This document shows, one piece after another, positions 788-33,082 of a DNA stretch of 43,912 nt. Position 1 is the first letter of the stretch. Each line of letters starts with the position of its first letter. The notes beneath the pieces are model-generated. The model was not told where the DNA came from. It saw only the letters and a list, made by a program, of their open reading frames with translations, and made no database searches. The DNA comes from Bacilli bacterium (GTDB lineage: Bacteria > Bacillota_I > Bacilli_A > RF39 > UBA660): contig JAVVTI010000004.1 of the NCBI GenBank assembly GCA_036653735.1, positions 1-43,912 on the forward strand, given 5' to 3'. The translations under genes were made by a program, and so were the position numbers.

Positions 788-3710
<2,923 letters not shown>

Positions 3711-3778
3711 AATTTTAATTTGATATTACATTATCTTGTTTTGAGAGAATAATTGTTGTATAATAACAATATATCTAA

Positions 3779-3882
3779 ATTGGTTGCGATAGCAAAGAGG
3801 GTACACCTGATCCCATCTCGAACTCAGAAGTTAAGCTCTTTTACGCCGACGATAGTGTAAGCGAAAATAGGAAGTTGCCAAT
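3779..3882 (+). rRNA. rrf: 5S rRNA, short (~104 nt) form
   Basis: TTGG...GCCAA closing helix, CCCATCTCGAAC and GAAGTTAAGC motifs, loop E region GATAGT...GAAAATAGG. Confidence 0.95.
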
Positions 3883-3900
3883 TTTTTTTTGATTTAAAAC

Positions 3901-3939: not shown

Positions 3940-4016
3940 GGCGCTATTGGTGAAGTGGTTAACACGGCGGATTGTGGTTCCGTTATGCATCGGTTCGATC
4001 CCGATATGGCGCCCCA
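3940..4016 (+). tRNA. tRNA-His (GTG)
   Basis: Cloverleaf: acceptor GCGCTAT/ATGGCGC with G-1:C73, anticodon arm GCGGA-TTGTGGT-TCCGT, T arm ATCGG-TTCGATC-CCGAT, encoded CCA. Confidence 0.97.
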
Positions 4017-20994: not shown

Positions 20995-22974
20995 ATGAAA
21001 CATAAAACTATAATAAACAATATAAAAAAATACACATCTACTAATATTTTATTTATTAGTTATTGTTTATGTGCAGTAGTTTTAGATATAATATTAAGAG
21101 GTATAACAGGAAGCTCTATATTTTCTATAAGACCTATTCTAACTGATGCAGCCTTTGTAATAATGATAGGCTCTTTTGGTTACTTGTTAAAACCTAAAAA
21201 CCAAATAAAATACTTCTTTACTTTAACCTTTATGTTTATGCTCCTTTGTACTATAAATGCTGTATACTATGAATTCTATGAGTCCTATGCTTCATTTAAC
21301 TTAATATCTACATTACCAATGATAGAAGCAGTAGATGACTCAGTATACCAAAAGATACACTTCTCACAATTTATATATCTTTTCTTTCCTTTTATATTAC
21401 TTATAATACACAAAGTACTAAAAAAACAAAATTACTATGTAAAAAATAGTGAAGAAAAAAGAAAGAAAATGTTTAAATATACTTTTTTTACAGGCTTATT
21501 ATTTACTATATTACTCTTTGCTTCCCTAAAACCATCTGACTACTCACGTTTACTTAAACAATGGAATAGAGAATACCTAGTGCATAAAATGGGTATATAT
21601 ATATACCAAGCTAATGATATAATTCAAAGTGTACAACCTAAAATAAATACTATGTTTGGCTTTGATAAAGACTATAAGACTTTTAGAGACTTCTATGATA
21701 AAAAAGCCAAAGAAAAGATAACTACTAATAAATATACTAATGTATTTAAGGGTAAAAACGTTATATTTATACATGGAGAAAGTATTCAAACATTCCTAAT
21801 AGATTTAAAAATAGGTGATAAAGAAGTAACGCCCAACCTAAATAAACTTGCTAAAAAGAGTATGTATTTTTCTAAATTCTATCCTCAAATAAGTGTAGGA
21901 ACATCATCAGATACAGAGTTTACTCTATCAACAGGACTAATGCCATCCTCTAGTGGAACAGTCTTTGTATCATATTCTAATGTAGAATATGATACAATGC
22001 AGAAATACCTAAAAGATAATGGATACTTTATATATAGTATGCATGGTAATAAGGCAGACTACTGGAATAGAAAAGTAATGCATAAAAGTTTAGGATACGA
22101 TAAGTTTTATGCAAAAGACTTCTATAATGTAACACCAGAAAATACTATAGGATTAGGTATAAGTGATAAAGCTTTCTTTGAACAAAGTATACCTGAAATG
22201 AAAAAGATAAAAGAAGAACATTCACCATTTATGTCAACCATAATAACATTATCTAACCACTCATCATTCAATCATACTGATAAATATGGTATGTTTGATG
22301 TATCAATGAAATATAATGATCCTATTACTAATGAAGAAAAAACAGCCCCATACCTAGAGGGCACATATATGGGAGATTATCTAAAAAGTGTTAGATATGC
22401 AGATGAAGCTCTAGGAGAGTTCATTGAAGCCCTAGATAAAGAAGGTATTTTAGATAATACAGTATTCATATTCTATGGAGACCATGAAGCAAGATTATCA
22501 CAAAAACAGTTCGAACTACTATATAACTATGATCCTATAAAAGATGATTTAAAAGATAAAACAGACCCAAGCTATATATCATTTGATAACTATGGATATG
22601 ATATGACAAAGAATACACCATTAATTATATACTCAAAAGATAATAATATTGCATTTGAAAACAAAGATATAATGGGTATGTATGATATACTTCCAACACT
22701 CGCTAATATGTTTGGATTTAAAGAAAAATACTCTCTAGGCCACGATATATATAGTAACCATGAAAAAATAGCTATATTTCCAAATGGGGACTTCATAACA
22801 AACAAAGTATACTATGGTAACCTAAAAAATGAATATGTACTATTAGATGATAAACCTATAGATACAAACTATATAAAAAGATTAAAAGAATATACTAATG
22901 AGAGATTAAACGTATCAAATGCTATTATCTATCATGATTTAATTAAATATTCAAAAGGAAAAGAGGAAAAGTAA
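20995..22974 (+). CDS. ltaS: LTA synthase family protein
   Basis: Five N-terminal TM helices, sulfatase-like domain with HGESIQ, GTSSDTEF, H.N...WNR, TLSNH, YGDH. Confidence 0.88.
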   Translation: MKHKTIINNIKKYTSTNILFISYCLCAVVLDIILRGITGSSIFSIRPILTDAAFVIMIGSFGYLLKPKNQIKYFFTLTFMFMLLCTINAVYYEFYESYASFNLISTLPMIEAVDDSVYQKIHFSQFIYLFFPFILLIIHKVLKKQNYYVKNSEEKRKKMFKYTFFTGLLFTILLFASLKPSDYSRLLKQWNREYLVHKMGIYIYQANDIIQSVQPKINTMFGFDKDYKTFRDFYDKKAKEKITTNKYTNVFKGKNVIFIHGESIQTFLIDLKIGDKEVTPNLNKLAKKSMYFSKFYPQISVGTSSDTEFTLSTGLMPSSSGTVFVSYSNVEYDTMQKYLKDNGYFIYSMHGNKADYWNRKVMHKSLGYDKFYAKDFYNVTPENTIGLGISDKAFFEQSIPEMKKIKEEHSPFMSTIITLSNHSSFNHTDKYGMFDVSMKYNDPITNEEKTAPYLEGTYMGDYLKSVRYADEALGEFIEALDKEGILDNTVFIFYGDHEARLSQKQFELLYNYDPIKDDLKDKTDPSYISFDNYGYDMTKNTPLIIYSKDNNIAFENKDIMGMYDILPTLANMFGFKEKYSLGHDIYSNHEKIAIFPNGDFITNKVYYGNLKNEYVLLDDKPIDTNYIKRLKEYTNERLNVSNAIIYHDLIKYSKGKEEK

Positions 22975-23622
22975 ATGAAAAAAAATAAAACTGATAAACC
23001 TAAACTAAAGAAAGCACCAATAATAATTATTATAGAATTAATAGTGTTATTTCTATTTGTAGGAGTAGTAGGATATCAAATTAAAAAAGACTTCTTCACA
23101 AAAGAAAAAGAGGCAATTAATAAAGTAGAAGAAAAAGATAATATAAAAGAATATGGATATACACTAGATGATAGAGACACTGCCTTATTTAAAAAAGAAT
23201 ACAATTCATTAAAAGAACTACTAAATAAAAAAGAAATAGACTATAAAATCTATGCTGAAACATTAACAAAGATGTTCGTAATAGACTTCTATACATTAAA
23301 TAATAAATTTACTAGTACTGATATAGGATCCCTAGAGTTTGTACACCCAGATCAACTAGAAAACTTTAAATTAAATGCTGGAAAAACAATGTATAAAGGA
23401 ATAAAGAGTAACCTATATGATGATAGAGTGCAAGAACTACCTACTGTAATAAGCACAACACTCATATCAAATGAACCAACAAGTTATATATATAATAAGA
23501 AAACATATGAAGCATACAAAATAAAAATATCATGGGAATATGATAAAGACCTAGGATATGAAAAAGAAGGCACATTTATCTGTATTAAAGATAATAAGAA
23601 GATATACATAGTTAGTAAATAA
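22975..23622 (+). CDS. Membrane-anchored hypothetical protein
   Basis: One N-terminal TM helix. Abuts ltaS. Confidence 0.75.
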   Translation: MKKNKTDKPKLKKAPIIIIIELIVLFLFVGVVGYQIKKDFFTKEKEAINKVEEKDNIKEYGYTLDDRDTALFKKEYNSLKELLNKKEIDYKIYAETLTKMFVIDFYTLNNKFTSTDIGSLEFVHPDQLENFKLNAGKTMYKGIKSNLYDDRVQELPTVISTTLISNEPTSYIYNKKTYEAYKIKISWEYDKDLGYEKEGTFICIKDNKKIYIVSK

Positions 23623-23662: not shown

Positions 23663-25672
23663 TTATGGTTTCTTAATAGAAGAACCTTCATTATCAGGCT
23701 TACTACTAGGTTTCTCTCCTGTACTAGGCTTTTCCCCTGTACTAGGCTTTTCTCCAGTACTAGGCTTCTCTCCAGTACTAGGCTTCTCTCCAGTACTAGG
23801 CTTATCTTCTACTTTAGGAAAACCACTAGTCTTCTTAGCATACACAGTTATTTGTCTTACCCTAGATGCAAGAACTCCAGCTCCTTGAGATTGATCAACT
23901 ATAGTATATTTAGAATAATCAGCAGCATTAATAGCTTGTTTACTATCAACATCTAGAGCTATAAAAGTAATCCTATTTCTACCACACCAAGAAGATGCAT
24001 TAGATAAAGAATAAGAGTTAAAATTAGGTATCATTTCTATCTTAGCAGAACCAAAAGTATTAGCTCCTATAACTTCCTTTTCATATGGCTTATTTAAATC
24101 AAAACTAAATGTTTTAACCATAGTATAAGGAATCTTTCCTAAATTAACATTCATAGCATTAACAATTTCCTTAAGTCCCGCTGTACTGTGAAAGAATGCA
24201 AACCTAGGAGTAGAAGAACCAGGTTCTTTAACATAAGCATTCTGACCTCTTAAAAAAGTTCCTTGAATATTTAAAGTATTAATCTTATCATTAAATATTA
24301 ACTTCTTAGCTACCTTATAAAACGATAACATCTGTTCCTTTGTAATATTAGTATCAATATTCTTACTAACAGTATCAAATATATTCATAAAACTAGTTAC
24401 ACTTCTAATAGTTTTCCCTTTATTAAGCATTGCTTCTACTAACTGCTGTTGATTTTGTCCTCTTTGATAATCTCCTAAAAGAAATGCATACCTATTACGA
24501 GCAAATGCTAAAGCTTGCTCACCATTTAAAGTCTGATAACCCTTCTTTAAACATATCTCATACTCACCCTTATTTCTATTACTATCTTGTTCACAAAAAT
24601 CTATTGGAATAGTAGTTTCTATACCACCTAAAGCATTAACTAAACCAACAACGCCTTTAAAATTAACTTTAACATAATAATCAATAGTAATACCAGTTAA
24701 ATTCTGCATAGTTCTAATAACACAAGAAGTCCCTCCATAAGCAGAAGTATTAACCTTCTTAACGGCATTTCCACTACAAGCAATAGGAACATAAGTATCC
24801 CTCGGAATAGAGAACATAGTAGCTTCAAATGTATCAGGATTAAATGTAATCATCATAATAGTATCACCATTAAATGCTTCATTCTTATTAAGACCATCTT
24901 TTTCAGAGTCAACACCAAGTACTAAAACAGTAAAAGGATCAGTTAACTTCTTTTCACTATTACTAGTAGTATCATCCTTAATATCCTTCTTATTATAAGT
25001 CTTAGATAAACTAGTTACTTCTATAGCCTTCTTCTCAAGATCAGGAAACTCCAAAGTAACATTCTCACTCTCATCCCTAGAAGATACTCTAGAATAAACA
25101 TCTATATAATTACTACCAATAAATATTAAATCAACTTCTCCCTTATATAAAGCATTAAGTAAATCAGTACTAGAAGCATACTGCATAATAGTATTATTCT
25201 CATCCATCTTATACTTCTTAATAACCTCATTAGGTAATTTATAACCCTCTATATTACTTTCATCTTCAAGTAACCCAATCTTAGTCTTCTTTACATTTCC
25301 TATTTCTTTATACTTATTATCAAATGTTAATAATACAGTCTTATAAGTAACAGTATCCTTACTTAGATTATCTAACTTATTAGATATATTATAAAAGTAA
25401 TAAGTTCCAGTGCAGTCAATAACACAAAGAATAATAGAAAGCACACCAAGAACTATAAAAGACTTAACATGCTCCTTCTTAGTATTATAGAATAACCAAC
25501 CAATTATAACGCCCGCAAAATATATAAGTAATAATGCACACATTACCCTATAAAACCCTAATAACCCATTAAATAAGTATAACCCATAACAAATACTACA
25601 AGTACTTACTACTAAACTAAACGTTAAAATAATAGATGCTATAAACATAATCTTCTTTTTATTCTTTTTCAT
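23663..25672 (-). CDS. LCP (LytR-CpsA-Psr) family protein with N-terminal TMs, PBP-like accessory domain, PASTA-like segment and repeat tail
   Basis: VLVLGVD, SIPRDTYV, IDYYVKVNF, LNGEQALAFARNR, GDYQR motifs. Confidence 0.9.
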   Translation of the reverse strand: MKKNKKKIMFIASIILTFSLVVSTCSICYGLYLFNGLLGFYRVMCALLLIYFAGVIIGWLFYNTKKEHVKSFIVLGVLSIILCVIDCTGTYYFYNISNKLDNLSKDTVTYKTVLLTFDNKYKEIGNVKKTKIGLLEDESNIEGYKLPNEVIKKYKMDENNTIMQYASSTDLLNALYKGEVDLIFIGSNYIDVYSRVSSRDESENVTLEFPDLEKKAIEVTSLSKTYNKKDIKDDTTSNSEKKLTDPFTVLVLGVDSEKDGLNKNEAFNGDTIMMITFNPDTFEATMFSIPRDTYVPIACSGNAVKKVNTSAYGGTSCVIRTMQNLTGITIDYYVKVNFKGVVGLVNALGGIETTIPIDFCEQDSNRNKGEYEICLKKGYQTLNGEQALAFARNRYAFLLGDYQRGQNQQQLVEAMLNKGKTIRSVTSFMNIFDTVSKNIDTNITKEQMLSFYKVAKKLIFNDKINTLNIQGTFLRGQNAYVKEPGSSTPRFAFFHSTAGLKEIVNAMNVNLGKIPYTMVKTFSFDLNKPYEKEVIGANTFGSAKIEMIPNFNSYSLSNASSWCGRNRITFIALDVDSKQAINAADYSKYTIVDQSQGAGVLASRVRQITVYAKKTSGFPKVEDKPSTGEKPSTGEKPSTGEKPSTGEKPSTGEKPSSKPDNEGSSIKKP
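23705..23803 (-). repeat. 18-bp coding tandem repeat, (KPSTGE)x5 plus partial copy
   Basis: Units such as CTCTCCAGTACTAGGCTT with synonymous variants. Confidence 0.95.
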
Positions 25673-25780: not shown

Positions 25781-27157
25781 TTATTTTGTTTTTTTCTTCT
25801 TACTTACTTTTAATATATCTTCCTTAGGCTCATCTATTATTTCCTTCTTCATATCCTTTATCTTCTTCTTATTATTACATATCTTTTTAATAAGAATTAT
25901 TAATAATATAATAAATAACCCACCAGTTTCACCAAGTAACAAATAAGTCATCTTCCTATTTCTAATACTTTCCTCTTTATATATCTTAGCCTCATCATCA
26001 TAATACTTAGTAAAAGACTTATTAATAGTATCATAAACATAATAGTCCTTCTTCCCAGTCTCAGCATTCATAGCATAAACAACCTTATATAAAGACTTAC
26101 TATTTAACTCATAGCACTCCGCGTCTATATTATTAATCTTAAAACTAGACTTCTTATAATTACTAAACATATCACTATTTTCTAAATCACTCATAATAAG
26201 CACTAAACTACTAGAAGTTATCTCATTATATAATGTATAACTTCCACTTTTACTATTATAAGAATACAAACTTATTTTACCACTCTTATCCTTAAGACCA
26301 ACTAAAGTATAAGGAGTAATTTTAGATGTAGCACAAGGCACTATAGTACCATTAATATCTACTGTTCCCTTTTCATAAGTAGTAGGGAAGATAAGACTAC
26401 TTTCTCTTTTAACTACAAAATACTCTTCATTACCAATTTTTACCTTAATAGGACTTGCATCCTCTATACTACATACTATAGTATAAACTTTTTCACTCCC
26501 ATTTTCTGCAATTACTTTAACCTTAAAAGTATTATCTCCTTCACTTACTTTAAATGTTCCAGCCCCAGATACAGATGCTCCATTATGATTCTTAACAGCA
26601 TTAATAACAACTTCTTCAGTACTTGATGGAAGCTTAACTTTATATTCTGTCTTATCTTTATTAAAAACTGGATCTAAGTCACCACCACCTACAGATAAAC
26701 TCTTTAAACTATTATCTTTAGAATAAGAAGCCTCCAACTGAGACTGACTAATAATATTAATTGTCTTAGGAGATACATTTAAACTAAATCTACTTTCATT
26801 CATAGCATAAGCATCATATGACTTAACACTAATTACCGCCTTACCTGATGCAATAGCCTTAAAACTATAATTATATGTAGTACTTCTTTGATTTCCATTA
26901 CCATAACTAACTACAGGAGAAGTTCCACTAACTAACTTAAGAAGACCTGTATTATAACTTAAAGAAAATTCCCAACTACCAAGAGCCTCAGCAGATGATA
27001 ATGTAACAGATGCATTAAAAGTCTTACCTATTACAACCTGATTATAAGGACTAGTAACATTAAAAGTAGCACTAGCTGCATCTAATTCTTTAGTACCAAC
27101 TATAAAACATAAACAACCAATAAACAAAACCAATAACTTTTTAAATCTCTTTTCCAT
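25781..27157 (-). CDS. Membrane-anchored protein: signal peptide, cohesin-like domain, cadherin-like beta-sandwich, two internal repeats, C-terminal TM
   Basis: VVIGKTFNASVTL..LSYN..LKLVSG..FKAIASGKA cohesin-like pattern. SLKSLSV..L.P.FNKDKTEY..V.AENGSEKVYTI cadherin-like pattern. Hydrophobic helix followed by a Lys-rich tail. Confidence 0.75.
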   Translation of the reverse strand: MEKRFKKLLVLFIGCLCFIVGTKELDAASATFNVTSPYNQVVIGKTFNASVTLSSAEALGSWEFSLSYNTGLLKLVSGTSPVVSYGNGNQRSTTYNYSFKAIASGKAVISVKSYDAYAMNESRFSLNVSPKTINIISQSQLEASYSKDNSLKSLSVGGGDLDPVFNKDKTEYKVKLPSSTEEVVINAVKNHNGASVSGAGTFKVSEGDNTFKVKVIAENGSEKVYTIVCSIEDASPIKVKIGNEEYFVVKRESSLIFPTTYEKGTVDINGTIVPCATSKITPYTLVGLKDKSGKISLYSYNSKSGSYTLYNEITSSSLVLIMSDLENSDMFSNYKKSSFKINNIDAECYELNSKSLYKVVYAMNAETGKKDYYVYDTINKSFTKYYDDEAKIYKEESIRNRKMTYLLLGETGGLFIILLIILIKKICNNKKKIKDMKKEIIDEPKEDILKVSKKKKTK

Positions 27158-27165
27158 ACTTCCTC

Positions 27166-29373
27166 CTATAACTTTAATAGACCTAATATATTCTTTTGAA
27201 CCCTAAGTAAATCAAGTATATCAACCTTCTGATCACCATTAGTATCAGCAGCTAAAGCTTGCTCATTAGTTAGTGTATTACTCTTAATAATATGCTTTTG
27301 AACCTTAAGTAAATCTAATATAGTAACTTTTCCATCACAACTAGTATCACCATTAACTACAATAGTATATTCCATACTCTCATTAGAAGTAGTAGTAACA
27401 GTTAACCTATTTCCTGTTGCAAACTCATTACCAGGACTTAATACATTCCCATTAGAATCACTAAACCTAATAGTAGCATTAGGATCAACTTTATTTATAT
27501 TACTAATAATATCACCAGCAATACTACTAGAAGATATATTAGTTATATAATTATTAGTTACTTTAACAGATAACTTACTAAATATATCTTCTAAAGTCTT
27601 TGTCCCATCAACTAAAACAATATTTACTTTATATTCTTTAACTTCACCAGTTTCAGAAGTTACTTTAAGTATAACACTTAATGTATTACCATTAATTTCA
27701 TAAGTATTATTACCACTTAACTTACTTTTATTATTCTCTAAAATACCCTCTATAGTAACCTTCTTATTATCATTAGTTAAATAATGAGTATACTCAGTTA
27801 CATCCCTATCAAAAGTATTAATCCTAATACCATTAATTTTAATATCACTTAAATAATTATTAGAGTCTCCTATAACAGGAAGAGATACATACTTAGGCAT
27901 ATTACTATATACTGGAATAACAAAAGTATATCCATAATTAAGTAAGTTCTTATCATTATAACTATAATACATCTTTCTACTCTCACTAACAGCAGATTGT
28001 ACATTAGTTTGAAACTGATGAGTATAGTAATATTGAACAGCAGTATTAAACTTTTGAAAATATAAAGTATCTTGACCAGCATTTATATATCCATTTGCAA
28101 TCCAAGAAGCACCACCATCAATTGCCTTCTTAGGAGTATTCCAAGGCCTATAATCATTATTACTAAACCCACAAGCAGCTCCACAAGCATAAGCAAGACC
28201 TCTATCACCAGGCTCATTAGTATATGCATCAGCATGAGACCCTATATTAAAGAAATTATAAAACCCTTTTAATGAGTAACCCCTATAAGTTCTATTATAA
28301 TTACCACTAACCATTCCATAATTAGGATTCCCAGCACCCTCCTGTAAAGCCCTAGCAGCTAAATGAACAGGACTTACATTACTAGAAGCGGCAGCACCCA
28401 TAAAATAACCAATAAACTCATTAGAATTTAAATAAAGATTTTGAAACATAGTTCCAAGTAAAGCAGGACTATGAACTTCTTTATTATAAGAAAGCTGCTC
28501 AAACATAAATATAAAATACTTATTTAAAAAATTTCTAGGATCCATATAAAAAGCATTAACTCCATCAGTAGCAGTATACCACCCTCCAACTTCTCTTTCT
28601 ATAGGATTAGTAATATAATTAATCTCCTTAGATTGTAAATAATTCTTACCACTTTCCCCATTAATAACATCCTCCCAAACTAAATTATTATTCTTAGCTT
28701 GAAAATTCCATAGAGGAAAATCCTTATGAAGTTTAAGTAAATAAGGAATATAAGAATCAGGAAACCCTTTTGCCTTTAAAGAAGCAATATAAGCATTTTC
28801 CTCACTAGTATAAACATCCTTCTTAAGCACCATATTATCATATAATTCTATATAAGAACCACATATATATCCTTTAGAATTACCTTTAAATGAAACATTA
28901 TACCACTTATTATTACAACCAGCTCCCTCAGGTAAAACATTAATTATATTAAAACTAGTTCCACTAATAGCATAATCTACTGGAGTAGAATACTCACTAG
29001 CACTTGATCTTATAGGCATACTTTGAGAAGTAATAAGTCTAGCATCAAATGGAGCAGTACTATAAGTAGTATTAGAATATGATACACTCCCTAATACTTT
29101 AATAAAAGAACTACATATATAAGCCCCATTATTTTGATAACGTATCTTATACCATCCTTCATTACATCCACTTCCAACATACTTAGTAGTATCATATAAA
29201 AATACTTGAGTACCATTACTATATTCAGTTAATACATTACTATTAACATTATAATTATCTCTTACCCTAACAGAATTACCTACAATAGAACCATAAGTAT
29301 CGGCATTAACATTTATATATACAAAAAACATAAAAAATGTGATAACAAACATAATTATATTACTTTTTTTCAT
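27166..29373 (-). CDS. Secreted cell-wall hydrolase: two SH3b-like domains, GH73-like glucosaminidase, cadherin-like domain, C-terminal dockerin
   Basis: VRVR..WYKI..YICS SH3b-like repeats. RALQE, YNFFNIG, GQDTLYFQKFN catalytic-domain motifs. Duplicated GDTSCDGKVTILDLL / ADTNGDQKVDILDLL dockerin loops. Confidence 0.85.
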   Translation of the reverse strand: MKKSNIIMFVITFFMFFVYINVNADTYGSIVGNSVRVRDNYNVNSNVLTEYSNGTQVFLYDTTKYVGSGCNEGWYKIRYQNNGAYICSSFIKVLGSVSYSNTTYSTAPFDARLITSQSMPIRSSASEYSTPVDYAISGTSFNIINVLPEGAGCNNKWYNVSFKGNSKGYICGSYIELYDNMVLKKDVYTSEENAYIASLKAKGFPDSYIPYLLKLHKDFPLWNFQAKNNNLVWEDVINGESGKNYLQSKEINYITNPIEREVGGWYTATDGVNAFYMDPRNFLNKYFIFMFEQLSYNKEVHSPALLGTMFQNLYLNSNEFIGYFMGAAASSNVSPVHLAARALQEGAGNPNYGMVSGNYNRTYRGYSLKGFYNFFNIGSHADAYTNEPGDRGLAYACGAACGFSNNDYRPWNTPKKAIDGGASWIANGYINAGQDTLYFQKFNTAVQYYYTHQFQTNVQSAVSESRKMYYSYNDKNLLNYGYTFVIPVYSNMPKYVSLPVIGDSNNYLSDIKINGIRINTFDRDVTEYTHYLTNDNKKVTIEGILENNKSKLSGNNTYEINGNTLSVILKVTSETGEVKEYKVNIVLVDGTKTLEDIFSKLSVKVTNNYITNISSSSIAGDIISNINKVDPNATIRFSDSNGNVLSPGNEFATGNRLTVTTTSNESMEYTIVVNGDTSCDGKVTILDLLKVQKHIIKSNTLTNEQALAADTNGDQKVDILDLLRVQKNILGLLKL

Positions 29374-29556: not shown

Positions 29557-30600
29557 ATGAAATTTATAGTAAATGGACACAATATTTTCTTAATAGTATC
29601 AATATGCACTATGGCATCTTTTATATTTGTACAAATAATGAAAAAAGTAGCCACATATATAGGAGCACTAGACTATCCAGATAAAAGAAAGATTCATTTA
29701 AAACCAATTCCAACTCTAGGAGGAGTAGGAATCTTTGTTGCATTCTTACTAGGATATATACTTTTTGGAGAAGAAAGTACTCTTATGCTTTCTATATTAA
29801 TAGCATCATTTCTTATTCTAATATTAGGAATATTTGATGATATAAAACCAATAGATGCTAAATATAAGTTTATAATTCATATTATTATAGCTTCTATTGT
29901 AGTATTTTATGGAAAATTAGAAATTACTAGAATAATCTTCTTTGATATAAACTTTGCACTAGGATCATTATCATCAATTATTTCCGTAGTAGCAATAGTT
30001 GCTATTATAAATGCAATAAACTTAATAGATGGACTAGATGGACTATGTGCAGGAATCTCCTCTATATACTTTTTTACAATAGCGGTTATTGCATTACTAT
30101 TAAATAAACTAGGTGGGTTAGATATAATACTATCTCTTATAATGCTAGGATGTTGCTTAGGATACCTAATACATAACTTTCCACCAGCTAAAATATTTAT
30201 GGGAGACACAGGTTCTACATTCCTAGGACTTATGATAGCAGTTATTATGATGCTAGGATTTAAAACATACACACTTACTTCCTTAGTAATACCACTTTTA
30301 GTTCTAGCAATACCTATATTAGATACAATATTTGCTATTATTAGAAGACGTATACACGGTAAACCAGTAGGACAAGCAGATAAAGAACACTTTCATCATC
30401 AACTTTTAAAACTAAACAAATCACCTAGAAAAACAGTACTATCTATGTATGCTATTACAGCTATATTCTCCATAACAACAATTCTTTATGCAGTTGGATA
30501 TAAAAAAGAGATGTTTATCACATATATAGTATTACTATTAATGATAATATTTCTAATATTTAAAACAAACATACTATTTGACTGGGGAAAAAAGAAATGA
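29557..30600 (+). CDS. tagO: Undecaprenyl-phosphate GlcNAc-1-phosphate transferase (TagO/WecA)
   Basis: RKIH..PIPTLGG, GIFDD, NAINLIDGLDGL, IFMGDTGS, DKEHFHH. Confidence 0.9.
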   Translation: MKFIVNGHNIFLIVSICTMASFIFVQIMKKVATYIGALDYPDKRKIHLKPIPTLGGVGIFVAFLLGYILFGEESTLMLSILIASFLILILGIFDDIKPIDAKYKFIIHIIIASIVVFYGKLEITRIIFFDINFALGSLSSIISVVAIVAIINAINLIDGLDGLCAGISSIYFFTIAVIALLLNKLGGLDIILSLIMLGCCLGYLIHNFPPAKIFMGDTGSTFLGLMIAVIMMLGFKTYTLTSLVIPLLVLAIPILDTIFAIIRRRIHGKPVGQADKEHFHHQLLKLNKSPRKTVLSMYAITAIFSITTILYAVGYKKEMFITYIVLLLMIIFLIFKTNILFDWGKKK

Positions 30601-31565
30601 ATGTTGCCATTTTAGGAGCAGGTGCATATGGTCTTGCTTTAGCATCCATTCTTATTAATAATAAACACCATGTTCAAATATGGACAAATAGTAAAGAAGA
30701 AAAAGAACTACTAACTAAAACAAGAAAAAGTCCTAAATTAAAAAATTATAAGATTCCAAAAGAACTTATAATTTTAGATGATTTAAAACAAGTAGTTAAG
30801 AATAAAGATCTCGTTATTATAGCAGTTCCAACTTTTGCATTCGAAACCATAATAATAGATTTAAAGAAATATATATTAAAAAAACAAATAATATTAATAA
30901 CCTCAAAAGGAATACAACAAGAAACATGCTTATTTTTAAGCGATGTTCTTTTAAAACATCTAAATAATAAATATGCAGTAATTTCAGGTCCAACATTTGC
31001 TTTAGATATAATTAAACAAACACCCATAGGCTTCTCATTAGCAACAAAATATAAAGCAGCAGAAGAAATAGTTGTAAAAGCATTTTCAAATAAAACCACT
31101 AAATTTAGAAGAACAAGAGACATAATAGGAGTTGAAATATGCTCAAGTGTAAAAAATGTAATGGCTATAGCAAGTGGCATCTTAGAAGGAATGAATGTTA
31201 CAGATTCAACAAGAGCTTTATTTCTAACAGAATCACTAAATGATATAAAAGAACTTATTAAAGCATTAGGTGGAAACAAAAAAACAATACTTTCATTTGC
31301 TGGCTTTGGAGATATCCTAATGACATGCACAAGCCATAATAGTAGAAACTTTACATTTGGCTATCTAATAGGAAAAGATATAAACAAAAAAGAAATAGAC
31401 TCCTTTCTAAAAGAAAACACAGTAGAAGGAATGTATACATTAAAATCAATTAAAAAATTAATAATAAAAAAGAAAATAAATCTACCAATAATTAACTTAA
31501 TATATGATATTATATTAAATAATAAAGATAAAAAAGAACTATTAAGATTTCTAATAGAAAAATAA
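30597..31565 (+). CDS. gpsA: NAD(P)H-dependent glycerol-3-phosphate dehydrogenase
   Basis: GAGAYG, SKGI, SGPTFA, KNVMAIA.G, GFGD..TC.S.NSRN, VEG. Confidence 0.95.
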   Translation: MNVAILGAGAYGLALASILINNKHHVQIWTNSKEEKELLTKTRKSPKLKNYKIPKELIILDDLKQVVKNKDLVIIAVPTFAFETIIIDLKKYILKKQIILITSKGIQQETCLFLSDVLLKHLNNKYAVISGPTFALDIIKQTPIGFSLATKYKAAEEIVVKAFSNKTTKFRRTRDIIGVEICSSVKNVMAIASGILEGMNVTDSTRALFLTESLNDIKELIKALGGNKKTILSFAGFGDILMTCTSHNSRNFTFGYLIGKDINKKEIDSFLKENTVEGMYTLKSIKKLIIKKKINLPIINLIYDIILNNKDKKELLRFLIEK

Positions 31566-31603: not shown

Positions 31604-33082
31604 ATGAAGTTTGAATTAAGTTTTAAAAAAATATTTATGATATTCCTTGTTACATATCCTATATTTGATATGTACCCTTTTTATAATAGAATAACAACCC
31701 TTATAAGAGTTGCTATTATAACAACAATGTTTCTATATGTACTTATAAAATATAAAGATAAGAAAGCTTTTTTACTTTTTTTCTTATATTTCATATTACT
31801 AGGTATATTCTTCATAATTCACGATAATCACTGTTCCTTCTTTAGATCATTTAGCCCTACAAACTTTGATTATAATGTACTAGAAGAAATGCTATACTTT
31901 GTAAAAATGACTATGCCACTAATATTTATATATATCTCATATAAAATAAAACTAAATAAAAAAGATATAAAAAATATAATAATAGCACTAAGTATATTAA
32001 TATCTACTAATATAATTATAACTAATTTCTTTGTAATAAGCTATTCATCATACTCTAATGAATTAATAAAAGGAAACTTCTTTTCGTGGTTCTTTGGAGC
32101 ATATGCTAAATATGGATATATGCAATTAGCATCTAAGGGATGGTTCTACTTTGCTAACCATACAATAGCTATATTAGTAATGATATTACCAATTATATTT
32201 TATTACCTAATAGAAGACTTTAACTATAAAAAAGTAATTATATTATGTTGTCACTTGTTTGCCCTTGTATTATTAGGTAATAGAACTAGTGTTATAGGAA
32301 CATATGCTATATTGCTTATAAGTATATTTACATACTTTGTTTTTACTGTAATAATAAAAAGAGATAAACCAAATAAGAAAGTACTAATATATATGATCTT
32401 ATTAATAATTATCTATCCCTTTTTTATATTTATTAGCCCTGCATACCAAAGATTCGAAGATACAAAAACTATTGTCAATTCAGTAAACAAAGAAACCATA
32501 TTAAATATAAATAATGAACAAAAGATTAACTATATAGTTGAAGAAAAAGAAAAGAAAATAAATTATATATTAACAAACTATAAAAGTAAAATGGTTAACC
32601 CTATATTCTTTAAATATTATCCATATGAATATGATACAGATTTTTGGTATCTAGAAATAAAAAACAATGATAAAACAAACTTTATTAACTATAGAAATTT
32701 AGAAATAAAAATACTTAATAGAGTTATAATTACAAACAATAATAAATATGATAAGTTACTTGGAATAAGTCACTCAAGACATATGAATATAGTTAACTAT
32801 GAAAGAGACTACTTTAGTCAAATATATAGTGTAGGTATTATAGGATTATTCTTATTAATATCACCTTACATAATAATATTATTATATTTAATAATTAAAC
32901 TATTTAATAAGAAAAACTTTAAACTAAAAAATATATTATTTATATATTCCTTAGGAATCTTTTTAAGCCTCGCACTCCTATCAGGCAACCTGCTTAATTC
33001 CCTAAGCGTTACAGTTATTTTTTCGTTCATAATGGGAATAATGATTAATGAAGAAAATTATGCTATAATTAAGAAGAGGTGA
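31604..33082 (+). CDS. O-antigen ligase / Wzy-like polytopic membrane protein (TuaE-like)
   Basis: About 12 TM helices, KGWFYFAN, LGNR, large late extracellular loop, ERDYF...GIIG. Confidence 0.7.
   Translation: MKFELSFKKIFMIFLVTYPIFDMYPFYNRITTLIRVAIITTMFLYVLIKYKDKKAFLLFFLYFILLGIFFIIHDNHCSFFRSFSPTNFDYNVLEEMLYFVKMTMPLIFIYISYKIKLNKKDIKNIIIALSILISTNIIITNFFVISYSSYSNELIKGNFFSWFFGAYAKYGYMQLASKGWFYFANHTIAILVMILPIIFYYLIEDFNYKKVIILCCHLFALVLLGNRTSVIGTYAILLISIFTYFVFTVIIKRDKPNKKVLIYMILLIIIYPFFIFISPAYQRFEDTKTIVNSVNKETILNINNEQKINYIVEEKEKKINYILTNYKSKMVNPIFFKYYPYEYDTDFWYLEIKNNDKTNFINYRNLEIKILNRVIITNNNKYDKLLGISHSRHMNIVNYERDYFSQIYSVGIIGLFLLISPYIIILLYLIIKLFNKKNFKLKNILFIYSLGIFLSLALLSGNLLNSLSVTVIFSFIMGIMINEENYAIIKKR

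Follow-up and report, generated by a model that had tools for sequence, protein, structure and literature searches.

A membrane anchor with a cohesin-like domain and a dockerin-bearing GH73-like hydrolase are encoded as a conserved gene pair in Bacilli

Overview of the gene pair

We identified a two-gene operon that encodes a secreted, GH73-like putative peptidoglycan hydrolase ending in a dockerin and, directly downstream, a membrane anchor that carries a divergent cohesin domain. The genes lie in the window (the whole stretch of 43,912 nucleotides that was analyzed), which derives from a 1.06 Mb Bacilli genome estimated to be 94% complete. Searches of this genome with PF00404 and PF00963 returned one dockerin and one cohesin-like match, and these are in the two adjacent genes. 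Because the sole matches of both kinds adjoin, we consider the pairing to be more than chance. The two genes are also conserved together in related genomes. The most likely reading, to which we assign a probability of about 0.6, is that the pair leashes a housekeeping autolysin in a calcium-dependent manner.

All features described below are encoded on the minus strand. The hydrolase gene (27166–29373, 735 aa) was defined from the open reading frame and from Pfam, NCBIfam and PDB profile searches, and is followed by the anchor gene (25781–27157, 458 aa), the product of which was modelled by AlphaFold2 with a mean pLDDT of 87.5. As originally predicted, the anchor start codon is only 8 nt past the hydrolase stop codon. 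Across this junction (27158–27167), the ribosome-binding site of the anchor gene, AGGAGGA, overlaps the TAG stop codon of the hydrolase gene. Thus, the two genes appear to be translationally coupled. Every feature listed in the original prediction was found in the sequence where it had been placed.

The dockerin-bearing hydrolase

The hydrolase consists of a signal peptide, two SH3b domains, a GH73-like domain, a cadherin-like domain, an unassigned beta region and a dockerin, in that order. The signal peptide (aa 1–24; 29302–29373) was recognized from sequence, hydropathy and alignment. It ends in VNA, and the terminal residue, A24, is almost invariant in the family alignment. The protein has no transmembrane helix of its own by hydropathy, which gives the N-terminal signal (aa 3–25) as the only hydrophobic window. 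Pfam SH3_3 matches the hydrolase in two stretches (E 1.2e-10). These correspond to a first SH3b domain (aa ~28–98; 29080–29292; profile matches 2kq8 and 2krs) and to a second (aa ~110–178; 28840–29046; best Pfam stretch aa 121–176; profile matches 2kt8 and 2kyb).

The catalytic region (aa ~195–490; 27904–28791) resembles GH73 N-acetylglucosaminidases, enzymes that cleave the GlcNAc-beta-1,4-MurNAc bonds in peptidoglycan. The NCBIfam model for 'peptidoglycan release complex glucosaminidase SagB' matches aa 265–476 (E 1.7e-10, far under its 425-bit cut-off). The family profile, searched against the PDB, matches solved GH73 enzymes (6fxo, E 1.7e-16; 6fxp and 6u0o, E 1e-13; 4pi7, E 3e-12; and 5wqw). 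PF01832 (Glucosaminidase) had no match at E ≤ 0.1, either in the whole genome or in an hmmscan of the hydrolase. We therefore refer to the domain as divergent GH73-like, given that homology is recognized only via NCBIfam SagB and the PDB profile. Alignment to 6fxo and 6fxp places the predicted catalytic glutamate at E345 (codon 28339–28341), in a column that aligns with the Glu of their L-E-T-G motif and that is Glu in 67/67 family members. The original assignment to GH73 is thus upheld, with the catalytic Glu retained. This is the only GH73-like domain found in the genome, and a second copy of the hydrolase family was not found elsewhere in it.

The tetrapeptide FQTN (aa 454–457; 28003–28014) occupies the place of the GH73 YATD-type motif, as had been noted from the sequence. 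The family consensus HQYmTN aligns over HQYATD of 6fxo and 6fxp, so FQTN retains the aromatic residue and the Thr of the substrate-binding YA(S/T)D motif and has Asn in place of Asp. Other family members read Y-M-T-N, with Tyr (here Phe) in 66 of the 67 and Asn in all 67. Published mutants bear on both positions. In S. aureus AtlA, Y214A cripples activity, Y214F restores activity and D217N has markedly lower activity (PMC7170848). AtlWM stayed almost fully active after change of the equivalent Asp to Ala or to Asn (PMC4633669). As Tyr-to-Phe at this position restores AtlA activity, FQTN would, by analogy, be compatible with an active enzyme and need not signal inactivity. The family-wide Asn, considered together with the harmful D217N change in AtlA, points in the other direction.

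Following the catalytic domain is a cadherin-like beta-sandwich spacer (aa 508–585; 27619–27852). The Pfam Cadherin-like match here is below threshold (E 0.0069; 17.2 bits versus a cut-off of 24.2), but 64 of 67 hydrolase family members match at E ≤ 0.01. The anchor has a spacer of the same type (aa 152–228; 26474–26704) that scores above the cut-off (E 1.7e-7) and is matched in 66/66 anchor family members. The hydrolase family profile also matches this domain of the anchor (E 3.9e-14). The expectation of cadherin-like spacers in both proteins is thus supported.

The C-terminus is a type I dockerin with two calcium-loop/helix repeats (aa 675–730; 27184–27351), identified by Pfam and by column counts. 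Repeats of this kind are ~22 residues long. Dockerin_1 (PF00404) matches with E 5.1e-11 (43 bits versus a cut-off of 22.9), covering model positions 2–57 of 57, and is found in 67/67 relatives of the hydrolase. Calcium-loop residues are D676, S678, D680 and D687 in one repeat and D710, N712, D714 and D721 in the other. Positions 10 and 11 are Ile-Leu in both loops (I685 L686 and I719 L720), and the predicted duplicated dockerin with symmetric recognition residues is therefore confirmed. Likeness of both repeats at the recognition positions is a trait of dual-binding dockerins. Among 98 pairs of repeats, 96 have the same residue at position 10 (II 68, AA 18, SS 4, VV 3, LL 2 and TT 1), and the residue class has switched at least seven times on the tree. 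This symmetry probably reflects a functional constraint on the dockerin. The further suggestion of additional dockerin proteins that use the same anchor is unsupported here, as the census found a single dockerin in this 94% complete genome. Genomes of some relatives encode 2 to 10 dockerins each, and the additional dockerin proteins of some relatives are 1,100–2,500 aa long.

The membrane anchor and its cohesin domain

The anchor begins with a signal peptide (aa 1 to ~30; 27068–27157) indicated by sequence, by a hydrophobic window at aa 4–28 and by the family consensus V-x-A-A-S-A. The cohesin domain and the cadherin-like spacer are followed by a membrane-proximal stalk of two tandem beta subdomains of ~75 aa (26000–26452), recognized from the model and from self-alignment. 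The stalk halves share 28% identity (E 5e-4), and the stalk modelled alone has a pLDDT of 91.7 and a pTM of 0.81. We found no relative of the stalk among solved structures (best Z 4.3 among 48,161 chains; best Foldseek E 0.17). A transmembrane helix (aa ~401–425; 25883–25957) is indicated by a hydropathy peak at aa 405–423 and by the AlphaFold2 model, in which aa 388–441 form one long helix. Apart from the N-terminal signal, aa ~405–425 are the sole hydrophobic segment of the protein. The cytoplasmic tail that follows (25784–25882) has 13 Lys in 33 residues. The C-terminal anchor of the original prediction is thus present. SLH repeats were not detected in the anchor by Pfam at E ≤ 0.1. We conclude that this is a type I membrane protein in which, after signal cleavage, the cohesin is at the outer tip of the stalk.

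The N-terminal domain (aa 27–138; 26744–27079) was identified as a divergent cohesin by structure comparison and PF00963. Cohesins have a nine-stranded, flattened beta-sandwich (jelly-roll) fold. The AlphaFold2 model of the domain, which has a pLDDT of 93–97 over aa 30–140, has a predicted fold that is that of a cohesin. The best structural match by VIA-align is 2jh2 (Z 12.8, rmsd 2.4 Å over 110 residues), with 2vo8 and 2w1n at Z 12.7 and dozens of other cohesins, many of them cellulosomal, at Z 10–12. On this basis, the proposal of a cohesin-like domain holds. Some non-cohesin sandwiches score nearly as high, including the CLIPPER domain 9ifr (Z 11.3) and macroglobulin MG domains (Z 10–11).

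Sequence matches to this domain are weaker. PF00963 gave 20.3 bits (E 3.6e-4), under its cut-off of 24.1, and an hmmscan of the anchor at E ≤ 0.1 did not return Cohesin. Within the anchor family, PF00963 matches 12 of 66 members (best E 3.7e-7), compared with 25/66 for BatD and 13/66 for the chagasin-like I42 model. When the anchor-family profile was searched against the PDB at E ≤ 1, four of the ten matches listed were cohesin or scaffoldin chains. All four align to the N-terminal domain and all are weak (E 0.014–0.43).

Co-conservation and genomic context

A relative of the anchor is present in 306 species genomes. Of 80 public loci, 79 have the dockerin-bearing hydrolase immediately upstream of the anchor (the one exception has just 71 nt of upstream sequence), as do 19/19 loci of relatives. 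Among 33 long matches to the anchor in relatives, 32 are directly preceded by a dockerin on the same strand; these counts are drawn from related genomes and are not independent samples. The genes are thus co-conserved, and the predicted pairing of cohesin anchor and dockerin hydrolase is widespread. In the taxonomic family of the window, the module occurs in 30 of 36 genomes. Five of the six genomes of this family that have no anchor match have no dockerin match either. In a post hoc count, canonical GH73 open reading frames of at least 690 aa were found in 5/7 same-family genomes without the full pair and in 0/30 with it. PF01832 also matches in 15 of the 30 pair-bearing genomes, mostly in open reading frames of 180–330 aa. 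Thus, the tethered enzyme is not always the only glucosaminidase.

The gene after the anchor encodes an LCP (LytR-CpsA-Psr) glycopolymer transferase (23663–25672), in agreement with the original reading of this locus (LytR_cpsA_psr E 2.1e-42; 145 bits versus a cut-off of 24.6). The arrangement is frequent, not constant: an LCP gene is directly downstream in 40 of the 64 loci with enough sequence. Envelope genes nearby are those for the LCP protein, a GT4 (TagO/WecA-type) transferase, an LtaS-like sulfatase, GpsA and an O-antigen-ligase-like protein. Five PBP transpeptidase matches and at least three SEDS matches were identified in the genome and, judging from this gene content, the organism makes a wall.

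Proposed role and alternatives

The hydrolase is predicted to be secreted and to be the only detectable GH73-type peptidoglycan N-acetylglucosaminidase of the genome. Its two N-terminal SH3b domains may bind the wall. The anchor would be fixed in the membrane by its single C-terminal helix and would present the cohesin on the cadherin-like domain and tandem beta stalk. We infer that the dockerin plugs into the cohesin with calcium, and the hydrolase would therefore stay leashed to the membrane of the producing cell. So held, the enzyme could act only on the wall of the producing cell, as far as the two stalks extend. The role would then be a housekeeping one, for example wall remodelling, trimming of glycan strands or separation of daughter cells. 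Observations that run against the proposed leash are the sub-cut-off PF00963 score, the BatD and I42 matches, the high-Z non-cohesin sandwiches and the variable LCP linkage.

Action on foreign peptidoglycan, either to lyse neighbours or to harvest wall fragments as nutrients in a cellulosome-like display, would fit the small genome (1.06 Mb), the usual outward direction of enzymes by cohesin-dockerin display and the long additional dockerin proteins of some relatives. Fusions of dockerins to putative lysozyme modules in rumen metagenomes are regarded by their authors as possible tools of competition (PMC6487960). However, the anchor is in the membrane, under the cell's own wall, and the adjoining genes are for biosynthesis of the cell's own envelope. 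We favour a role on the own wall over the walls of neighbours because of this envelope-gene context and because no other GH73-like gene was found in this wall-building organism. Occurrence of the module in most genomes of the family is also what a core function would predict, and we regard attack on foreign walls as unlikely. We judge it similarly improbable that the two proteins do not bind, the anchor sandwich being a generic Ig-like or jelly-roll spacer and the dockerin a calcium-stabilized module that binds a wall polymer, something else or nothing. Such a case is consistent with the sub-threshold Cohesin score, with BatD and I42 models that match at least as much of the family as Cohesin does, and with unrelated sandwiches at Z 10–11. 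R. albus is a precedent for imbalance, with dozens of dockerins and at most one cohesin (PMC4081043). Against it, the genome's one dockerin and one cohesin-like domain are encoded by adjacent, apparently coupled genes, and this adjacency recurs in nearly all loci compared. In addition, cohesins are the top structural matches and the weak sequence matches, and position 10 has stayed alike in both dockerin repeats through at least seven changes.

The anchor could instead be mainly a regulator that sequesters the autolysin, or couples it via the stalk to wall-synthesis or LCP machinery, for timed release or activation. The conserved, confidently modelled tandem stalk that has no solved relative among the structures searched, and the frequent downstream LCP gene, would be in keeping with this, and SagB with SpdC is a precedent for membrane-coupled control of wall hydrolases. 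However, a short cytoplasmic tail that is no more than Lys-rich, a variable LCP linkage and the lack of an identified stalk partner speak against it. We consider a mainly regulatory anchor to be very unlikely. An extension of the leash, in which the anchor serves as both a radial ruler and a control hub, with the cohesin-dockerin joint and rigid stalks setting the depth of cutting and the stalk coupling to peptidoglycan-synthesis or LCP machinery, is speculative and, in our view, doubtful. If correct, it would represent a natural cohesin-dockerin system for spatial control of wall hydrolysis, and a functional counterpart of SagB-SpdC made from cellulosome parts across a lineage of reduced-genome gut Bacilli.

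Comparison with known systems

The closest structural matches of the anchor cohesin are the non-cellulosomal cohesins of C. perfringens GH84C and GH33 (2jh2, 2w1n and 2vo8), with an rmsd of 2.3–2.4 Å over 110–111 residues for 2jh2 and 2vo8. Those cohesins sit within large secreted glycosidases and link enzymes to one another. In contrast, the anchor has a single cohesin atop a membrane stalk and a peptidoglycan hydrolase as its predicted cargo, and identity is 16%. C. thermocellum OlpA and OlpC (3ul4 and 4dh2; Z 10.9 and 11.5) also have one cohesin on a surface protein. Their cohesin directly engages a type I dockerin carried by an enzyme, whereas dockerin binding by the anchor is only predicted. 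OlpA and OlpC attach to the wall through SLH domains; the anchor gave no SLH match at E ≤ 0.1 and relies on a transmembrane helix near its C-terminus, and its predicted cargo is not an enzyme for plant polysaccharides.

The catalytic domain is homologous to those of S. aureus SagB and AtlA/AtlE (6fxp, 6u0o, 6fxo and 4pi7; E 1e-13 to 1.7e-16 for the first three). In SagB, itself a glucosaminidase held at the membrane, an N-terminal helix provides the tether, and the partner is a polytopic membrane protein. Unlike SagB, the hydrolase described here has only a signal peptide, its predicted tether is non-covalent, via dockerin and cohesin, and its YATD motif reads FQTN.

[quoted passage not shown] That gut Firmicute is likewise non-cellulolytic and has exactly one module of each kind. 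It belongs to the Clostridia, unlike the Bacilli host here, and the published mention is an annotation. The amylosome of Ruminococcus bromii, described in the same source (PMC4611034), is a case of cohesin-dockerin assembly in a non-cellulolytic gut Firmicute. It comprises 26 dockerin-carrying and four cohesin-carrying proteins that organize amylases, in contrast to the one dockerin, one cohesin and predicted wall hydrolase cargo of the pair described here.

The hydrolase and anchor genes

We identified two adjacent genes on the minus strand, one for a predicted cell wall hydrolase that ends in a type I dockerin (27166-29373, 735 aa) and one for a membrane anchor with a cohesin fold (25781-27157, 458 aa). 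A gene for a LytR-CpsA-Psr (LCP) glycopolymer transferase (23663-25672, minus strand, 669 aa; Pfam LytR_cpsA_psr, E 2.1e-42) follows, so that all three are arranged head to tail. The sequence AGGAGGA overlaps the TAG stop of the hydrolase gene and the ATG of the anchor gene comes 8 nt later, an arrangement by which the two genes look translationally coupled. The window corresponds to contig C4 of a genome of 1.06 Mb (94% complete). In this genome there is one dockerin match and one cohesin-like match, and they are in these adjacent genes. The original prediction of adjacent genes with a dockerin and a cohesin-like domain at this locus is confirmed.

The single hydrophobic segment of the hydrolase is its N-terminal signal. 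Pfam identifies SH3_3 in two stretches (E 1.2e-10), a Cadherin-like domain at aa 508-585 (a match under threshold) and Dockerin_1 at aa 675-730 (E 5.1e-11). The Pfam Glucosaminidase model (PF01832) does not match the catalytic domain, and the NCBIfam SagB model matches aa 265-476 (E 1.7e-10). A profile of 67 members of the hydrolase family, searched against solved structures, matched the glucosaminidase of Staphylococcus aureus AtlA (6fxo, E 1.7e-16), SagB (6fxp and 6u0o, E 1e-13) and AtlE (4pi7, E 3e-12). In the profile alignment a Glu column of the family aligns with the Glu of L-E-T-G in the GH73 enzymes. The predicted catalytic glutamate, E345, is invariant (67/67 members).

The same alignment places the family motif HQYMTN over the GH73 motif HQYATD. 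As had been remarked from the sequence, the window hydrolase reads FQTN here (aa 454-457). The Asn is invariant in the family, and Phe (F454, 28012-28014, minus strand) replaces the Tyr of the other 66 of 67 aligned members, so that the window hydrolase stands alone in this substitution. According to one mutant study, Y214A cripples AtlA, Y214F "completely restored" activity and D217N lowered it (PMC7170848). In AtlWM, a second paper reports nearly full activity for the equivalent Asp-to-Ala or Asp-to-Asn mutants (PMC4633669). Given the AtlA Y214F and AtlWM results, FQTN is therefore no sign of a dead enzyme. By analogy, it is compatible with activity of the predicted hydrolase.

The cohesin domain of the anchor

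The AlphaFold2 model of the anchor was built with 66 homologues and has a mean pLDDT of 87.5. In structure comparison, the best matches of aa 27-138 are cohesins. The non-cellulosomal cohesins of Clostridium perfringens rank first (2jh2, Z 12.8, rmsd 2.4 Å over 110 residues; 2vo8, Z 12.7, rmsd 2.3 Å over 111 residues; 2w1n, Z 12.7), and cellulosomal and archaeal cohesins are next (Z 10-12). Non-cohesin sandwiches obtain Z 10-11.3 against this domain. The top Foldseek match for the anchor is also 2w1n (E 2.9e-8). At the sequence level the support is weaker. On Pfam Cohesin (PF00963) the domain obtains 20.3 bits, under the cut-off of 24.1, and at E<=0.01 the matches among the 66 anchor relatives are to Cohesin in 12, BatD in 25 and I42 in 13. 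The 10 PDB sequences listed include four chains of cohesins or scaffoldins, and these match the domain only weakly (E 0.014-0.43). We call the N-terminal domain a divergent cohesin.

The cohesin domain is followed by a Cadherin-like domain at aa 152-228 (Pfam, E 1.7e-7). The protein ends in a hydrophobic helix (aa ~405-425) and 33 further residues, 13 of them Lys, which puts the cohesin farthest from the membrane. A weak GreA_GreB match on the anchor signal peptide (E 0.0038, below cut-off) is taken as spurious.

Between the cadherin-like sandwich and the membrane are two tandem beta subdomains of ~75 residues each, which form a conserved stalk (26000-26452, minus strand; aa 236-386) that adjoins the membrane. 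The two halves are 28% identical (E 5e-4). Folded alone, aa 232-392 gave pLDDT 91.7 and pTM 0.81. A structure search of 48,161 chains found none at Z 5 (best 4.3), and Foldseek found no solved relative (best E 0.17); the absence of a match among solved structures does not prove a new fold. The protein atlas places the stalk in Bacillota clusters only, made up of cadherin-like or cohesin-named proteins of about anchor size plus unnamed hypothetical proteins.

Co-conservation of the pair

The two genes are conserved together. We surveyed the window genome together with 60 relatives. Within the same family, 30 of 36 genomes have the anchor and 31 of the 36 have dockerins; in other families the anchor is found in 2 of 24. 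Of the long anchor matches (n = 33, with 33 short rows that cover the cadherin-like domain only excluded), 32 have an upstream dockerin match on the same strand, with its end 27-483 nt away. The exception is a second paralogue, 26% identical. Five of the six same-family genomes without an anchor match also lack a dockerin match, and in the sixth a dockerin stands at the start of a contig (G022:C5:866-1033) with no downstream match to the anchor query. The anchor may have diverged there, or the genome may be a true exception. By tblastn, the hydrolase is upstream of the anchor in 19/19 loci of relatives.

A scan with one genome per species identified an anchor relative in 306 genomes, most of them gut MAGs under the labels Bacilli, Tenericutes, Mycoplasmatota or Mollicutes. 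Within the best 80 loci, a dockerin-bearing hydrolase is directly upstream of the anchor in 79, and the miss has just 71 nt of upstream sequence. Where 2.3 kb or more of upstream sequence is available (74 loci), the catalytic region is covered as well in every case. Of the 64 loci that extend 2 kb or more downstream, 40 have LCP immediately after the anchor.

Four same-family genomes (G031, G014, G020 and G028) have 4 to 10 dockerin matches each, several in ORFs of 1,100-2,500 aa. In these organisms, additional cargo may dock on the same anchor or on other cohesins.

The predicted dockerin interface

Both calcium loops of the dockerin are intact (D676, S678, D680, D687 and D710, N712, D714, D721), and both repeats read I-L at positions 10/11 and Q-K at 17/18. 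The first loop contains a cysteine, C679 (27337-27339, minus strand), where 62/67 members have Gly.

We compared the repeats in 98 natural hydrolase-anchor pairs, taken from 99 loci. Position 10 is identical between the repeats in 96 of the 98 (II 68, AA 18, SS 4, VV 3, LL 2, TT 1), and its residue class changed at least seven times on a tree of the anchor sequence minus the cohesin part. Concerted symmetry of the repeats is a trait of dual-binding type I dockerins. Its occurrence here argues that positions 10/11 form a working interface. Covariation of dockerin position 10 with anchor columns is weak and confounded by relatedness; the cohesin domain, which makes up 112 of the 366 tested columns, holds 10 of the top 20. 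A phylogeny-aware test yielded four independent pairs on supported branches, too few for significance. Prediction of a complex of the cohesin (aa 26-140) and dockerin (aa 664-735) with two calcium ions, run without controls, scored 0.21 and 0.19, where the mark is 0.32, and is read neither for nor against binding. Of the proposed tether, the anatomy and the co-conservation are well supported; the key step, binding, is a prediction.

Possible role in the cell wall

The window genome builds a wall, as it encodes five PBP transpeptidase matches and six SEDS matches (three in long ORFs of 243-389 aa). We did not identify a canonical PF01832 gene in it at E<=0.1, nor a second copy with the hydrolase-family profile. 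Of the 30 pair-bearing genomes of the family, 15 also contain PF01832 matches, most of them in ORFs of 180-330 aa, and thus the tethered enzyme is not always the sole glucosaminidase. This co-occurrence weakens the mutual exclusion of canonical GH73 and tethered enzyme suggested by five hand-picked close relatives. What remains is a post hoc split by ORF size, in which canonical GH73 ORFs of at least 690 aa were found in 5 of the 7 genomes of the family that lack a full pair and in 0 of the 30 that have it. The five (G002, G003, G018, G021 and G025) have large canonical GH73 proteins instead (ORFs of 693-1,175 aa). This post hoc grouping suggests that the large proteins are an alternative solution to the same job. 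The original prediction allowed either remodelling of the cell's own wall or attack on neighbouring cells. We read the hydrolase as a probable housekeeping autolysin, leashed to its own cell via a putative cohesin-dockerin joint, and consider it less likely that the leashed enzyme attacks neighbours.

Wall hydrolases are potentially lethal, and how bacteria hold them where they belong is under active study. The solutions described so far are repeats that bind the wall, a membrane helix of the enzyme itself and activation by membrane complexes. If our reading is true, a dedicated cohesin-dockerin leash would be a further, modular way to place these enzymes, and from its distribution in genomes it appears to be the standard solution among uncultured gut Bacilli of a large lineage whose genomes are ~1 Mb in size. 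The pair is small and one-to-one, an easy in vitro target, and would be a natural orthogonal plug-and-socket for surface display.

The value of the finding is limited by an earlier remark on a lone cohesin-dockerin pair linked to GH73 in Ruminococcus bicirculans (Ze et al., PMC4611034). A study of rumen metagenomes describes dockerins on putative lysozyme modules (Bensoussan et al., PMC6487960). In the literature covered, which lies largely outside subscription journals, we found no experimental work on a peptidoglycan hydrolase tethered by a cohesin and a dockerin. We therefore file the pair under an already known, experimentally unexplored kind. The present analysis adds the stalk with no relative found among solved structures, the dockerin repeats that stay symmetric in concert, support for FQTN being compatible with activity, and the counts across the family.

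Surroundings of the locus

An rRNA operon opens the contig (1-4013), with the 3' part of the 16S rRNA (1-499, cut by the window edge), 23S rRNA (788-3712), 5S rRNA (3779-3883) and a tRNA (3941-4013). Because of this operon, G+C rises to 43-45% in the first 4 kb; it is ~22-32% elsewhere in the window. Other envelope genes near the pair encode an LtaS-like sulfatase (20995-22974), a GT4 transferase (29557-30600), GpsA (30597-31565) and an O-antigen-ligase-like protein (31604-33082).

The 108-nt gap between the anchor and LCP genes contains TTGTTA-17-TATAAT, a hint of a promoter-like site ahead of the LCP gene; in the scan, such sites (41 vs 38.9 +/- 6.3) and terminator-like sites (2 vs 1.3 +/- 1.2) were not above shuffles. 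Between the LtaS-like and LCP genes, a gene on the plus strand (22975-23622) encodes a protein of 215 aa that starts with a hydrophobic segment at its N-terminus and has no Pfam match at E<=0.001. The C-terminus of the LCP protein (23663-23800, minus strand) has five tandem copies of PSTGEK (KPSTGEKPSTGEK...), which form a low-complexity extracellular tail.
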